Shown here: piece by piece, positions 9,668 to 30,125 of the stretch
Layout: every line of letters starts with the position of its first letter
Numbering within the stretch: position 1 is the first letter of the stretch
Assembly: GCF_022846255.1 (NCBI RefSeq)
Contig: NZ_AP025682.1
Length of the DNA stretch: 64,000 bases
Strand: one strand, 5' to 3'
Source: Escherichia coli
GTDB lineage: Bacteria > Pseudomonadota > Gammaproteobacteria > Enterobacterales > Enterobacteriaceae
Notes under the pieces: generated by a model
What the model was told of the DNA's origin: nothing
Database searches by the model: none
Seen by the model: only the letters and a program-made list of their open reading frames with translations
Made by a program: the position numbers and the translations under genes

Positions 9668-9744
9668 GTAGGACGGATAAGGCGTTTACGCCGCATCCGG
9701 CAACAGATGCCTGATGCGACGCTACCGCGTCTTATCAGACCTAC
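9668..9744. repeat. REP elements downstream of ybiJ
   Basis: gtaggacggataaggcgtttacgccgcatccggca and gcctgatgcgacgctaccgcgtcttatcagacctac. Confidence 0.85.

Positions 9745-9892: not shown

Positions 9893-9894
<2 letters not shown>
9865..9894 (+). terminator. intrinsic terminator between convergent ybiJ and ybiC
   Basis: gcccgtccgccactggacgggc followed by TTTTTTTT. Confidence 0.7.
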
Positions 9895-12081
<2,187 letters not shown>

Positions 12082-12108: not shown

Positions 12109-14259
12109 TTAACGCCGCCGACGGCGTGGGGATTTCGTTTTTTCTTTCTTTTTAACTATACCTTCAGGGACTTCCGGTTGCTCTATCGGAAATACCGGTA
12201 ATGCATCCAGTAGTCGCTTGCCATAATTTTTTGTCAGCAAGCGTTTGTCGTAGATAACCACTTCCCCCCAGCAACCGTGGCTTCGAATCAGTCGCCCAAC
12301 CTGCTGAATCAGGTTAAACGAAGCGCTCGGCAGGCTTTGCACCTCAAACGGATAGCGGTTGAGGCTTTTCAGCCATTCACCTTCGGTGATCACCACCGGG
12401 CTGTCGATGGGCGGAAAAGCGATCTTGTGGATATGCACCTGGCTGAGCAGATCGCCTTTCAGATCAAGACCTTCGGCAAAGGACTGTAAGCCCACCAGCA
12501 CGCTACGCTCACCGTTGGCAACGCGTTTGCGGTGCAGTTCAACTAAGCGATAACGTGGCTGATCGCCCTGCACCAGCAACATCAGGCGTAAATCCGTCAC
12601 ATAGTCGAGAAAGCGCTGCATCGCACGCCCGCTGGCAAACAGCACCAACATACCGAGATGTTTTTTGCTCTCCACCTGTTCACGGAAAAAGGCCGCCATT
12701 TCGGCAATGTGCTGCTCTTCGTTGTCGATGGAAGGCTCAACGCGCATCCGGGGAATAACAATTTTGCCCTGTTCACAGTGGTTAAAAGGGGAATCCAGTG
12801 CCACAAAACGGTCGCCCGCTTTCTCTTTCAGCCCACTCATCTCCTGCAAACGCGAAAAACTGTTCAGCGAACGCAAGGTTGCGGAGGTAACAATAATGTG
12901 CGGAATACTGCGCCACAGCAGCCTTTCCAGCTGATCGCTAACACGTATTCCCACGCAGTGAAACCAAAGGTGTAGCTGCCCTTCGCGCTCTTCCCGCGTC
13001 GCCCATTTGGTCACCGGCGCACCGGAAGATTGCGCCAGAGACGCCAGCCGCCAGAGTTTGCTTTGCGCCTCGAACATCCCCAATGCGCGGTTCATCTGCA
13101 AAATCAACCGATGCAGACGTACAATGTCATGGCTGCCGGTTTTCTCACTTAAATCGTTAAGAAATAACTCCGCCAGGCCACGCAGCATCTCGGTGAGTTT
13201 TGCCAGCCGCTGGCAGATCTCCAGCACTTCATCTGGCAGTTCGCCCATCGCAAAACGGTGCTCTGCCTCCTGCCCGGCAGGCATGTAGAGATTGAGAATG
13301 TTGTTTAACGAGGCGATAAGCTCATACAACTCTTCACAATGCGCATTCAAACGTTCAGGGATCGCCAGCGGCGGGATGGTCTTCGGGCGAAACTGCTCCA
13401 TGCAGGTAGCGACCAGTTTCGTGAACAAGTCCAGCTGTAGCCGATACCACGGCGCGGTGATTTCGGCGCTCATCTCCAGCGCATCCCGCGCCACATCCGG
13501 CAGGTGATGACCTTCGTCCAGCACCAGCAGTAAATTTTTCGGGTCAGGCAATACCGCTTCGCTTTCCATCGCCGCCATCACCAGCGCATGGTTTGCCACC
13601 ACCACTTCCGCTTCCTGAATTTCCCGACGAGCGACAAAAAACGGGCATTCGCGATAGTAATAACAGTTGCGGTTGAGGCAGCTGGCCTTGTCGGTACTCA
13701 AACGACGCCAGAGATCGTCATCAATGGCGATATCAGTATGATCGCGCAGACCATCCCATTTATAAGTGTCGAGATCGCCCTTCAGCTTCGCACAACGTTT
13801 TTGCTCTTCCTGATTGTTCGGCGTCAGTTCATCGTCAAGAAACGCCAGCAGATCCTGTTGCGTGGGCTCAGTGCTGGCGAGCGCTGTCAGATTACGCGGG
13901 CAAACGTAGCGCCCACGCCCAAAAGCGGCAGTGAATTTAAGATCGGGAATGATCTTTTTCAGCAGCGGTAAATCTTTGCTGTAGATCTGATCCTGCAATG
14001 CCACGTTGGCGGTACTTACCACCAGCGTTTTTTGCTCTTCGCGGGCAATGGCGATGCCGGGGATCAAATAGGAGAGCGTTTTCCCAACGCCGGTAGGGGC
14101 TTCAATCGCCAGATGCCGCCCTTCTTCTCCGGCCAGCGTTTTGGCGACGTCCGCAATCATCTGCCGCTGCGGCGCACGGGGAATAAAGTCGGGGATCTGT
14201 TCCTGAAGCGCCTTATACCAGGCGGCAATTTGCGCTTTAAGCGCGGCGGTTAATGCCAT
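12109..14259 (-). CDS. dinG: ATP-dependent DNA helicase DinG (XPD/Rad3-like Fe-S helicase)
   Basis: 716-aa ORF, Walker A APTGVGKT, DEGH box, conserved Cys cluster; LexA operator just upstream. Confidence 0.96.
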   Translation of the reverse strand: MALTAALKAQIAAWYKALQEQIPDFIPRAPQRQMIADVAKTLAGEEGRHLAIEAPTGVGKTLSYLIPGIAIAREEQKTLVVSTANVALQDQIYSKDLPLLKKIIPDLKFTAAFGRGRYVCPRNLTALASTEPTQQDLLAFLDDELTPNNQEEQKRCAKLKGDLDTYKWDGLRDHTDIAIDDDLWRRLSTDKASCLNRNCYYYRECPFFVARREIQEAEVVVANHALVMAAMESEAVLPDPKNLLLVLDEGHHLPDVARDALEMSAEITAPWYRLQLDLFTKLVATCMEQFRPKTIPPLAIPERLNAHCEELYELIASLNNILNLYMPAGQEAEHRFAMGELPDEVLEICQRLAKLTEMLRGLAELFLNDLSEKTGSHDIVRLHRLILQMNRALGMFEAQSKLWRLASLAQSSGAPVTKWATREEREGQLHLWFHCVGIRVSDQLERLLWRSIPHIIVTSATLRSLNSFSRLQEMSGLKEKAGDRFVALDSPFNHCEQGKIVIPRMRVEPSIDNEEQHIAEMAAFFREQVESKKHLGMLVLFASGRAMQRFLDYVTDLRLMLLVQGDQPRYRLVELHRKRVANGERSVLVGLQSFAEGLDLKGDLLSQVHIHKIAFPPIDSPVVITEGEWLKSLNRYPFEVQSLPSASFNLIQQVGRLIRSHGCWGEVVIYDKRLLTKNYGKRLLDALPVFPIEQPEVPEGIVKKKEKTKSPRRRRR

Positions 14260-14273
14260 GAGAAAACCTGAAA

Positions 14274-14293
14274 TACTGTATAAACAGCCAATA
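14274..14293 (-). promoter_or_regulatory. LexA (SOS) operator of dinG, asymmetric box
   Basis: Plus strand tactgtataaacagccaata; reverse complement tattggctgtttatacagta is the known asymmetric dinG SOS box, 14 nt upstream of the ATG. Confidence 0.85.
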
Positions 14294-14365
14294 TTGTGGC
14301 ATTTTTCGGTTTTCAGGGGTAATGGTTTTTCTGTTTCGGGAAAGCGGCTCGCAATAACCAGCAGG

Positions 14366-14563
14366 ATGATGCGTAAAGCGCTTCGCGCTAAATTCGAACA
14401 ACATGCAGAACTGCGTACACTCTTGCGGGCAACCGCGTCCGCAAAACTGGTTGAGCATACGCAAAATGATGCTTACTGGGGAGATGGCGGTAATGGTCAG
14501 GGCAAGAATCGCCTGGGGTACCTTTTAATGGCGTTGCGCGGACAATTGGCTGCGGAGAAGTAA
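14366..14563 (+). pseudogene. ybiA: ybiA (NADAR-family N-glycosidase) 3' remnant; 5' two-thirds absent
   Basis: ORF 14258-14563: last about 65 aa (MRKALRAKFEQHAELR...GKNRLGYLLMALRGQLAAEK) resemble the YbiA/NADAR C-terminus; the rest of the frame reads through the dinG LexA box and start codon; full-length YbiA is 160 aa as I recall. Confidence 0.6.
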
Positions 14564-14646
14564 CGCATCGGGTGGCTTGTGGGCGTTAAAACAGAGAAAT
14601 CTTTTTGCCGCGCTCGCAAATGGCTGACAAGTGCTTGTTGTGAAAT

Positions 14647-14745
14647 GCCGGATGCGGCGCGAGCGCCTTATCCGGCCTACAAAAACATGCACATTCAATA
14701 TATTGCAGAGTTCACGTAGGCCTGATAAGCGTAGCGCATCAGGCA
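14647..14745. repeat. REP elements between ybiA remnant and rhlE
   Basis: gccggatgcggcgcgagcgccttatccggcctac and gtaggcctgataagcgtagcgcatcaggca. Confidence 0.85.
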
Positions 14746-14768
14746 GTTTTGTGTTTGTCATCAGTCTC

Positions 14769-14789
14769 ATGCCGGGCATAGCCCGGCAT
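14769..14789. terminator. palindromic hairpin just downstream of rhlE (atgccgggc-ata-gcccggcat)
   Basis: Perfect 9-bp inverted repeat 7 nt past the alternative-frame rhlE stop; no clear U-tract. Confidence 0.4.
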
Positions 14790-14795
14790 AAAAGA

Positions 14796-16149
14796 TTACT
14801 GCGCAGCGGCAGGTTTACGCGGACGGCGGCGACGTTGTTGTTCGCCTGCCGGTTTGGCATCGACGAGACGGTTTTTCTGCGGGCTTCGCGTTACCAGACT
14901 TCGCACCACTTTCCGTACGGCGTGGTTGCTGTTGACCGCGACCACCGCCCTGTCCACGACCGCCGCCACGTTGCTGGCGACCGTTCTGGATCGGTTCGGC
15001 TTTGATTGACGGGTCCGGCTCATACCCCGGAATCGCAATGCGCGGGATCTCTTTTTTCAGCAGTTTTTCGATATCACGCAGCAGTTTGTGTTCATCAACA
15101 CACACCAGCGACAATGCTTCGCCAGTTGCCGCCGCACGGCCAGTACGCCCGATACGGTGAACATAATCTTCCGGTACGTTTGGTAACTCATAGTTGACGA
15201 CGTGCGGCAACTCTTCGATATCCAGACCGCGCGCAGCGATGTCAGTTGCCACCAGTACACGAATATCGCCCGATTTAAAATCGGCCAGCGCACGAGTACG
15301 CGCACCTTGCGATTTATTACCGTGGATCGCCGCACTACGGATGCCGTCTTTATTAAGCTGTTCAGCCAGATGGTTAGCGCCATGTTTGGTACGGGTAAAC
15401 ACCAGCACCTGCTGCCAGTTCCCTTTCCCAATCATATGCGACAGCAATTCGCGTTTGCGTTTCTTATCGACAAAGTGAACGTGCTGGGTCACCTGATCAG
15501 ACGCAGTATTGCGGCGTGCCACTTCGATTTCCAGCGGGTTGTGCAACAGTTTTTCCGCCAGGGCTTTAATATCGTCAGAGAAGGTCGCGGAGAACAACAG
15601 GTTCTGGCGCTTCGCTGGCAGTTTTGTTAACACGCGACGGATATCGTGGATAAAGCCCATGTCGAGCATGCGGTCAGCTTCATCAAGGACGAGGATTTCA
15701 ACCTGATCCAGCTTCACTGCATTTTGATGTTCCAGGTCCAGCAGACGTCCCGGCGTTGCCACCAGCACATCAACGCCGCCGCGCAACTTCATCATTTGTG
15801 GGTTAATGCTGACACCGCCAAACACCACCAGCGAACGAATGTTCAGATATTTGCTGTAATCACGGACGTTTTCGCCAATCTGCGCCGCCAGTTCACGGGT
15901 CGGGGTAAGAATGAGCGCGCGTACCGGACGACGCCCTTTGGCGTGCGGCTGGCGAGTGATCAGGTGTTGCAACAACGGCAGCGTAAAGCCCGCTGTTTTG
16001 CCGGTACCGGTCTGGGCGCTGGCCATCAGGTCGCGGCCTTCCAGCACCGCAGGGATCGCCTGCTGCTGAATAGGGGTGGGTTCACGGTAACCCTGCTCGG
16101 CAACGGCGCGCAGGATATCAGGGCTTAAACCCAAAGAATCGAAAGACAT
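14796..16149 (-). CDS. rhlE: ATP-dependent RNA helicase RhlE (DEAD-box), C-terminal tail frameshifted
   Basis: ORF 14815-16149 (444 aa) has Q motif, [23 protein letters not shown]; the RhlE-like basic terminus ...[20 protein letters not shown] is in a different frame (ORF 14796-15038). Confidence 0.85.
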
Positions 16150-28987: not shown

Positions 28988-29977
28988 TTAGCCACCAATG
29001 TACGATAAGTTTTGCGTAATACCGGTGTTATTTTGATGCAGGAAATGGGTCTGTTTTTTCTCCCGCAGCGCCGCTGAAATACGCGCTTCCAGCGCCTGTT
29101 GCTGGGTATCGTCTTCCAGCAGATCGCGCAGGTTAACGCCGCCTTCACCAAACAGGCAGAGATGGAGTTTACCAATGGAGGAAACGCGCAGGCGGTTGCA
29201 AGTGGCGCAGAAGTCTTTTTCATACGGCATGATAAGGCCAATCTCTCCGGCGTAATCCGGATGACAAAAGACTTGCGCGGGACCGTCGCTGCGTTGACGT
29301 AATTGGTGGATCCAGCCGCGACGCAGTAGCTCGTCACGCAGAACCTGACCAGAGATGTGATGCTTACGGAAGAGCTCGCTGCCCTCGCCCGTTTCCATCA
29401 ATTCGATGAAACGCAGCTGGATAGGGCGATGCTGGATCCAGTTCAGAAAGGTGTCGAGCTGATGATGATTAACATCACGCATCAGCACGGTATTGACTTT
29501 GACCTTCTCAAAACCGGCCTCAAATGCAGCATCGATTCCTGCCATGACCTGGTTGAATTTATCCTGCCCGGTAATGGCATGAAACTGGCGAGCGTCAAGG
29601 CTATCAACGCTGACGTTGATGCCAGTAAGTCCAGCATCGCGCCAGTTCGCCACATCGCGTTCCAGACGGTAACCATTGGTGGTGACCGCAATCTGGCGGA
29701 TAGCGTCGTTTTCCCGCACAGCGGCGATGATATCGGTAAAGTCGCGGCGTAAAGATGGCTCACCGCCCGTCAGACGGACTTTTTCGGTGCCAAGACTGGC
29801 GAAGGCGCGCGTAACCCGGCGAATTTCATCGACGGTAAGAAAGCCTTTATTGGTGACGCCGCTCGGTTTGTAGCCATCCGGCAGGCAGTAGGTGCAACGA
29901 AAGTTACACACATCGGTAATCGACAGGCGCAAGTAGTAAAACTTACGCGCAAATGCATCAGTCAGTTGTGAAGCCAT
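28988..29977 (-). CDS. moaA: GTP 3',8-cyclase (radical SAM)
   Basis: ORF track 28988-30058; 329 aa from [31 protein letters not shown] (CxxxCxxC radical SAM motif). Confidence 0.96.
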
Positions 29978-29979
29978 GT

Positions 29980-30125
29980 ACACCTTTCCAGATACGGGAG
30001 GCGAAGTCATTTCTTCCTTCGCCCTGGTGGCAATCTTTACAAGCATTGTCACGGCCAAAGCACCGTATCAGTTGACCCAGGTGCAGAGGCTAGAGTGTTT
30101 AGTGGTTAAGCCGATACTAGCGTGT
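29980..30125 (-). promoter_or_regulatory. moaA 5' leader; expected location of the Moco riboswitch RNA motif
   Basis: Long GC-structured leader directly upstream of moaA; assigned from known biology of the E. coli moaA leader, boundaries approximate and not folded. Confidence 0.5.

Follow-up and report, generated by a model that had tools for sequence, protein, structure and literature searches.

A truncated ybiA beside dinG in Escherichia coli, probably a lineage pseudogene left by a 298-bp deletion

In Escherichia coli K-12, ybiA (b0798) encodes a 160-aa N-glycosidase of the YbiA subfamily within the NADAR superfamily (PF08719, TIGR02464; PDB 2B3W). Hydrolysis by NADAR enzymes requires a Glu and a Lys, the E88Q variant being inactive and K95 being essential in the E. 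coli C7 NADAR (PMC11543638), and members of the YbiA subfamily possess a conserved Glu in the last β-strand (PMC11125620). A further NADAR, linked to rpoD, has been described in EPEC and other pathogens (PMC11125620). The closest relatives of the locus described here are RefSeq pseudogenes such as UTI89_RS03855, BQ9550_RS21240, and ABS743_RS16980, which are the same object, with an extent of 198 bp and an identical junction. The window, i.e., the whole 64-kb stretch of E. coli DNA that was analysed, carries a ybiA remnant that is 100% identical to the UTI89 sequence, and its sole difference from the genomes harbouring these pseudogenes is an 8-bp deletion in rhlE about 290 bp downstream. From the observed anatomy of the remnant, its frequency in the population, its lost family membership, and its relaxed constraint we conclude, with a probability of about 0.93, that it is a non-functional ybiA pseudogene resulting from a net 298-bp deletion in the ancestor of a lineage.

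Like K-12 ybiA, the remnant (14366..14563, plus strand; extent as for the PGAP pseudo-CDS UTI89_RS03855) lies between a divergent dinG and a convergent rhlE at the same place in the chromosome, and it keeps the stop codon and the REP region that follows. Unlike K-12 ybiA, it lacks a ribosome-binding site, a start codon, and residues 1-96. It consists of ATG-ATG, followed by the codons for YbiA residues 98-160 and a stop codon; position 14369 corresponds to Met97 of K-12 YbiA, residues 97-160 and the stop codon being encoded by 14369-14563, and 14366-14368 read ATG where K-12 has Val96 (GTG). The last 195 nt of K-12 ybiA are homologous to the remnant at 89% nucleotide identity, with 9 of 64 residues changed (55/64 identical), and residues 97-160 of 2B3W align to it with an E-value of 5.5e-31 (phmmer). 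Judged from these alignments, homology of the stump to YbiA is far above chance. A longer, mechanically defined ORF of 101 codons (14258..14563, plus strand), reported with its translation in an earlier sequence-only reading and present as described, begins at an ATG (14258-14260) sharing 2 nt with the start codon of dinG (complement of 14257-14259). Codons 1-36 consist of dinG-ybiA intergenic DNA in the ybiA frame and cross the LexA box of dinG (14274-14293) and the dinG start codon, so that this part does not represent a native N-terminus, as that reading had recognized. Resemblance to YbiA is confined to the C-terminal 64-65 residues, also in agreement with what had been claimed: PF08719 matches ORF residues 33-97 with an E-value of 4e-17 and 63.4 bits, a significant family-profile match demonstrating that the NADAR homology is real, although it covers just model positions 88-162 of 163 and the complete YbiA fold is therefore absent. 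By tblastn, no other NADAR-like coding sequence, and hence no full-length NADAR domain, is present in the 64-kb window, and YbiA residues 1-96 are without counterpart there.

A three-way alignment with K-12 and UTI89 displays a single clean gap of 298 columns with both flanks colinear. Relative to K-12, the net loss of 298 bp comprises 283 bp of ybiA coding sequence, from the start codon to about codon 95, and 15 bp upstream of it, the end of the ybiA 5′ leader, which includes the ribosome-binding site. The earlier estimate of roughly 490 missing bp is impossible, since the whole dinG-ybiA spacer of K-12 measures just 119 bp, but its placing of the loss, in the first 95 or so ybiA codons and part of the adjoining spacer, agrees with the alignment, in which the reference ybiA is not equally short (160 aa). 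As start codon and ribosome-binding site are gone when compared to intact orthologues at the same locus, the stump qualifies as a pseudogene, and the truncation of the domain suffices to polarise the event as a loss. The junction (14361..14368; net loss of 298 bp against K-12 and KE47, by alignments and a 60-bp junction probe) extends over several bases, with the left flank clean up to 14360 and the right flank from 14367. An ATGCG microhomology lies just inside both K-12 edges of the deleted segment, and 3-4 junction bases fit neither K-12 flank, which makes the exact deletion mechanism uncertain; they could stem from a simple deletion with later substitutions or from a 299-bp deletion accompanied by 1 nt of filler. 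Presumably, one deletion by illegitimate recombination, with end points near the short ATGCG microhomologies, occurred once in the ancestor of a large E. coli lineage and would have fused the last 64 ybiA codons to the 101-104 nt of dinG-ybiA spacer lying upstream, after which the stump has drifted under relaxed constraint. On the far side of dinG, the gaps named in the earlier reading, 27 nt between dinG and ybiB and 140 nt between ybiB and hcxB (ybiC) exist in K-12 and in the window alike (ORFs 9893-10978, 11119-12081, and 12109-14259). The term local lesion is apt insofar as a local deletion has left neighbouring genes and spacings intact, but the lesion is not private to this genome.

Of the domain model, the remnant matches no more than the C-terminal 46%, in contrast to K-12 YbiA, and it falls below the curated NCBIfam cut-off of 73.7 bits for TIGR02464 (YbiA equivalog domain, riboflavin-intermediate N-glycosidase): the 64-aa stump scores 61.0 bits and the 101-aa ORF 62.4 bits, whereas K-12 YbiA reaches 169.5. 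With these parts missing and a score below the cut-off, the remnant is a relic of ybiA and not an enzyme-encoding member of the family. By position, the catalytic Glu and the phosphate-binding Lys of NADAR proteins would sit in the N-terminal half, and E88 and K95 of the C7 NADAR should, following the logic of the alignment, map to SEHYFQAQK in YbiA (residues 47-55). This half, with the putative catalytic Glu and Lys, is entirely deleted in the window, and no active NADAR enzyme can come from the stump because the N-terminal half of the fold is missing. A KLVEH motif is still encoded in the remnant, and its Glu is a candidate for the strand Glu described by PMC11125620; without the remainder of the active site that Glu is irrelevant. 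Nonsynonymous divergence (dN) amounts to 0.074 for the remnant against K-12, as opposed to 0.0006 for the adjacent dinG and 0.011 for intact ybiA alleles, and in seven remnant sequences four of five polymorphic positions change the amino acid, L116R (in the window and UTI89) and L145P among them. The remnant is therefore under relaxed purifying selection, as estimated from a small sample by pairwise rather than tree-aware comparison. Since the pairwise dN/dS of about 0.3, although below 1, pools the periods preceding and following inactivation with the K-12 branch, where the gene is functional, it speaks for relaxation and not for full neutrality.

The 60-bp junction probe and the K-12 segment deleted in the window were used for counts over 5426 complete E. 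coli genomes; a 441-bp megablast was unable to classify K-12-like genomes, as it leaves their diverged ybiA 3′ part unjoined. Exactly this junction occurs in 1119 of the 5426 genomes, about a fifth, in one copy each and always on the chromosome (224 of all 1119 matching records at ≥99% identity), among them UTI89, E2348/69, ST131, and ATCC 25922, whereas the segment deleted in the window is present in 3429 genomes. By established strain typing, UTI89, E2348/69, ST131, and ATCC 25922 belong to phylogroup B2. The allele, with its shared junction, is fixed in the lineage and not peculiar to the genome of the window. PGAP labels the stump as an incomplete “NADAR ... missing N-terminus” in UTI89, E2348/69, ATCC 25922, and others, and it is therefore a lineage pseudogene already annotated in RefSeq, real but ordinary. 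In the literature searched, no paper on ybiA as a pseudogene or on a dinG-rhlE hotspot was found. Although the finding is in itself of little weight, the remnant is a handy lineage marker. About 37% of the complete genomes possess no YbiA, comprising the medically important remnant (UTI89-, ST131-, and E2348/69-like) and espX2/toxin-antitoxin lineages, and conclusions on YbiA based on K-12, i.e., its roles in pre-empting damage by riboflavin intermediates, in hydrolysing ADP-ribosylated guanine, and in swarming, are not transferable to strains from which ybiA is absent.

Four alleles exist for the dinG-rhlE interval: intact ybiA, the remnant, espX2, and a ParE/RelE toxin-antitoxin pair. The espX2 allele (encoding a type III effector; O157:H7, IAI39) and the PaaA2-like/ParE-RelE toxin-antitoxin allele resemble that of the window in being devoid of ybiA and in keeping the dinG promoter and operator. 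However, they exchange all of ybiA and the REP spacer for foreign genes, and no ybiA remnants were found in them, whereas the window allele is a simple internal deletion without foreign DNA. It might be argued that loss of YbiA was selected and offers an advantage in certain lineages, which would explain at least three independent losses at the locus; three ybiA-less alleles are common (remnant, 1119 genomes; espX2, 542; toxin-antitoxin, 325), and the named B2-type strains that were sampled show the remnant allele only. We nevertheless consider selected loss unlikely: selection is inseparable here from drift combined with hitch-hiking at a lineage's base, either replacement may be favoured for the incoming genes and not for removal of ybiA, and viable K-12 ybiA mutants with only a swarming defect, as cited in PMC11125620, fit a dispensable gene. 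Furthermore, an rpoD-linked NADAR paralogue that could compensate occurs in just 63 of the 5426 genomes. Strain 980-2 carries it between rpoD and mug; ST131 JJ1886 lacks it, as does, judged by an uninterrupted alignment, one O157:H7 genome. Compensation by it is therefore too rare to be the general reason why loss of ybiA is tolerated. Four of four rpoD-linked NADAR carriers that were cross-checked lack an intact ybiA, a thin hint. Measured upstream from the dinG ATG, the left breakpoints fall at 98 nt (espX2), 102 nt (toxin-antitoxin), and about 104 nt (window), all within 7 bp. Three such independent breaks might mark a replacement hotspot, perhaps because the site is prone to recombination and not solely because selection on the dinG promoter sets a limit there, and loss of YbiA could be adaptive and tied to the rest of the NADAR repertoire; we regard this speculation as unlikely.

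The deletion ended before the divergent dinG promoter and LexA operator. dinG itself (12109..14259, minus strand, by ORF list and alignment) is intact with 716 aa and one amino-acid difference from K-12, and the retained part of the dinG-ybiA intergenic region (14260..14360; 101-104 of the 119 nt of K-12) differs from K-12 by one SNP, at 14338. The SOS operator of dinG (14274..14293), intact and identical to that of K-12 by sequence and alignment, reads TACTGTATAAACAGCCAATA, the reverse complement of TATTGGCTGTTTATACAGTA, the asymmetric dinG operator known from the dinG literature. Contrary to the earlier reading, the remnant does not abut it, since 72 nt separate the end of the LexA box (14293) from the first remnant codon (14366); in K-12, 85 nt lie between LexA box and ybiA start. 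Promoter hexamers for the ybiA/dinG spacer have been published from genomic SELEX as predictions and not as mapped start sites (PMC3946193), and they place a predicted σ70 ybiA promoter, CTGAAA-18-TATTGT, at 14268..14297 on the plus strand (-35, 14268-14273; -10, 14292-14297) and a predicted σ70 dinG promoter, ATGCCA-16-TACAGT, at 14275..14302 on the minus strand (-35, 14297-14302; -10, 14275-14280, inside the LexA box). A simple consensus scan of 14150-14900 returned no promoter and no terminator. As LexA box and both predicted promoters are in the retained region, SOS control of dinG is probably unchanged by the deletion. The surviving ybiA promoter may even allow the stump to yield a short, probably untranslated, possibly LexA-controlled RNA.

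These features, together with a reading frame that has stayed open in each of the seven remnant sequences compared, codons that still specify the conserved LVE and D-x-YWG motifs, and an AGGA before the in-frame ATG-ATG at the junction from which a 65-66-aa peptide might be translated, could suggest that the stump is alive in a new role, either as a small gene encoding a C-terminal NADAR fragment of 65-66 or 101 aa or as a short SOS-controlled RNA. Strain A25 indeed has it annotated as a genuine CDS, WP_375294390.1, called a “NADAR family protein” of 65 aa. Such a role is very improbable, however. The spacing of 0-2 nt between AGGA and ATG is poor and leaves no usable Shine-Dalgarno arrangement, and the ATG of the 101-codon ORF lies upstream of the -35 hexamer of the predicted ybiA promoter, whose transcript would exclude that start. 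Half of a single-domain α/β fold is unlikely to fold, and the 9 changes in 64 residues and the preponderance of nonsynonymous polymorphisms within the lineage (4/5, with Leu-to-Pro and Leu-to-Arg) argue against a conserved product, as do two other lineages without ybiA that keep no stump at all. The remnant has no Rfam family or notable structure either; an Rfam E-value scan of 13500-15500 for RNA elements in or around it gave only sub-threshold, REP-derived matches (naRNA4, ES036) outside the stump. Neither the 101-aa ORF nor the 65-aa call in A25 should count as a gene.

An artefact of assembly or sequencing, or a lesion confined to this isolate, might be suspected as the source of the truncation because the window also has a private 8-bp indel in rhlE and thus holds at least one unique or erroneous indel. 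For ybiA this idea is already refuted and carries practically no weight, as the same junction, base for base, is present in complete genomes assembled independently (1119 matches) and 441 bp across it are 100% identical to ATCC 11775 and others. Downstream of the pseudogene, the convergent ybiA-rhlE spacer (14564..14795), with REP/BIME repeats and an rhlE-proximal hairpin, is colinear with K-12 and UTI89 in the alignment. Beyond this spacer, the 8-bp deletion in rhlE, real or possibly erroneous, is unique to the window, is shared by no complete genome, and would shift the rhlE reading frame.

The 101-aa ORF at 14258-14563 (+) appears in the ORF list with exactly the coordinates and sequence that the sequence-only reading had quoted for it. 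Its ATG overlaps the start codon of dinG (12109-14259, -) by 2 nt, and positions 14274-14293 read TACTGTATAAACAGCCAATA, which is the dinG operator (LexA box) in reverse complement. Homology to anything is confined to the C-terminal part of the ORF, as had been claimed for its similarity to YbiA: Pfam NADAR (PF08719) matches ORF residues 33-97 at model positions 88-162 of 163 (E 4e-17), and the 64-residue stretch encoded from 14369 onwards corresponds to positions 97-160 of YbiA from E. coli (PDB 2B3W; E 5.5e-31). A full-length NADAR domain elsewhere, named at the time as possible counter-evidence, is not encoded, no further NADAR-like sequence being found in the whole 64 kb window. Annotation of the 101-aa ORF as a gene is not warranted. 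On the other side of dinG, the gaps given for K-12, 27 nt to ybiB (11119-12081, -) and 140 nt from ybiB to hcxB/ybiC (9893-10978, -), are indeed those of both K-12 and the window.

In K-12, ybiA comprises 483 bp and is transcribed divergently from dinG at a distance of 119 bp. The proposed alignment with K-12, extended to UTI89, reveals a single gap of 298 columns with colinear DNA on either side, corresponding to the loss of 283 coding bp from ybiA, codon 1 to roughly codon 95, together with the adjoining 15 bp upstream, which include the ribosome-binding site. The loss had been overestimated at roughly 490 bp; the entire K-12 dinG-ybiA spacer measures just 119 bp. The left flank follows K-12 up to 14360, with one SNP at 14338, and the right flank does so from 14367 onwards; the junction bases in between match neither K-12 flank cleanly. 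ATGCG is present at both deletion edges in K-12, which makes it likely that the deletion arose at short microhomology; a 299-bp deletion plus one filler base is equally possible.

Of 5426 complete E. coli genomes, 1119 give a full-length match to a 60-bp probe centered on the junction, in each case a single one and on the chromosome. Among the positive strains are ATCC 11775, UTI89, UM146, E2348/69, O25b:H4-ST131 strains, and ATCC 25922, which established typing places in phylogroup B2, an assignment of these strains and not of the window. A 441-bp stretch across the junction shows 100% identity between the window and ATCC 11775, among other genomes. In UTI89, E2348/69, ATCC 25922, and further genomes, the 198-bp stump carries a PGAP pseudogene label ([quoted passage not shown]). 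Therefore, the lesion is real, old, inherited, and already annotated; its frequency and the identity across the junction refute an artefact or a lesion private to this isolate. The earlier view of a local lesion holds as regards a single gap with colinear flanks, but not if taken to mean a private one. The same pseudogene, identical to the remnant, already has an annotation in over a thousand RefSeq genomes; the remnant, known in this form, holds nothing unexpected, although a literature search found no paper on it. In one RefSeq genome, that of strain A25 (L012 432-629), the stump is inconsistently called a genuine 65-aa "NADAR family protein" CDS (WP_375294390.1).

Although homologous to K-12 ybiA, the remnant fails the tests for a NADAR enzyme gene, i.e., domain completeness, curated score, and presence of the N-terminal catalytic half. 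With NCBIfam TIGR02464 it scores 61-62 bits, below the curated cut-off of 73.7, whereas K-12 YbiA reaches 169.5. For hydrolysis, NADAR enzymes need both a Glu and a Lys: in the E. coli C7 NADAR, E88Q is inactive and K95 essential (PMC11543638). These residues would belong to the N-terminal half, the part lost in the deletion. Still encoded in the stump are the Glu of an "LVE" motif, putatively that of the YbiA subfamily, and D-x-YWG, which alone cannot form an active site.

Constraint on the remnant is relaxed. Its dN against K-12 is 0.074 (9 of 64 residues changed), compared with 0.0006 for adjacent dinG and 0.011 between the intact ybiA alleles of K-12 and KE47. Seven remnant-carrying sequences, all with an open frame, differ at five sites, four of them nonsynonymous (R98C, L116R in the window and UTI89, R144H, and L145P). 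Against K-12 the remnant has a dS of 0.25, roughly double the 0.12 of neighbouring dinG, and over 14369-14563 it resembles the intact ybiA of KE47 (L007) and MS 198-1 more than it does the K-12 allele; probably this lineage descends from a KE47-like ancestral allele, or mutation is faster in the stump.

For the ybiA/dinG spacer, two sigma-70 promoter predictions are given in a genomic-SELEX study (PMC3946193): CTGAAA-18-TATTGT for ybiA (+; -35 at 14268-14273, -10 at 14292-14297) and ATGCCA-16-TACAGT for dinG (-; -35 at 14297-14302, -10 at 14275-14280). Each lies beside or across the LexA box within the retained, essentially unchanged spacer, which suggests that SOS regulation of dinG would be unaffected and that transcription of the stump may persist, possibly controlled by LexA. 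The ATG of the 101-aa ORF (14258) lies upstream of the predicted ybiA promoter, whose transcript would therefore lack it, and the in-frame ATG-ATG at 14366-14371 is preceded by AGGA at a spacing of 0-2 nt, poor for initiation. An Rfam scan matched no family to the stump. Together with the relaxed constraint, these features make a functional mini-protein or RNA unlikely.

The dinG-rhlE interval (14260-14795; compared at loci L002, L004, L006, and L016) exists in at least four states in E. coli. The K-12 segment missing from the window, and with it an intact ybiA, is found in 3429 complete genomes (K-12, BL21(DE3)), the 298-bp deletion remnant in 1119 (UTI89, E2348/69, ST131), the type III effector gene espX2 in place of both ybiA and the REP spacer in 542 (O157:H7, IAI39), and a PaaA2-like/ParE-RelE toxin-antitoxin pair in place of ybiA in 325 (NMBU-W10C18), accounting for 5415 of 5426 if the states are mutually exclusive. 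No ybiA sequence was found in the latter two alleles. K-12 YbiA biology is thus inapplicable to about 37% of the complete genomes. In NMBU-W10C18 (L004 1-1600), dinG itself is annotated as a frameshifted pseudogene.

The occurrence of three independent ybiA-less alleles hints that loss of ybiA may have been adaptive, a reading of low probability. Upstream of the dinG ATG, their left breakpoints lie at distances of 98, 102, and about 104 nt, all within 7 bp. This clustering probably reflects mainly constraint: a loss of the ybiA start that spares the dinG promoter must fall within some 20-25 bp, and in so short a stretch three breakpoints inside 7 bp are only mildly unlikely (roughly 0.08, a crude estimate). 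A local recombination hotspot, considered jointly with adaptive YbiA loss linked to the NADAR repertoire, seems improbable. A NADAR paralogue linked to rpoD has been described (PMC11125620), and strain 980-2 (L010 5749-6312) encodes a stand-alone NADAR of 187 aa downstream of rpoD, between it and mug. General compensation by this paralogue is rejected: no more than 63 of the 5426 complete genomes carry it, and ST131 JJ1886 lacks it. All four carriers cross-checked (E2348/69, A25, UID2309220013, and GF43) lack an intact ybiA, and these very few cases may hint at mutual exclusivity.

The nearest complete genome is 99.8% identical to the window over 24 kb, and the sole length difference is 8 bp lost at 14849/14850 in rhlE (14815-16149, -), one unit of the imperfect tandem CGCCGAGA/CGACGAGA. 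The resulting frameshift after residue 430 replaces a conserved basic C-terminal tail of 23 residues by 14 unrelated ones, giving an RhlE of 444 aa instead of 453-454. Present in 0 of 5426 complete E. coli genomes, this deletion may be a true strain-specific mutation or a sequencing error. A molybdenum-cofactor riboswitch (29965-30109, -; 103 bits), upstream of moaA by comparison with IAI39, and a REP-derived naRNA4 match (9671-9741, +; 72.7 bits) are both expected in this chromosomal region.
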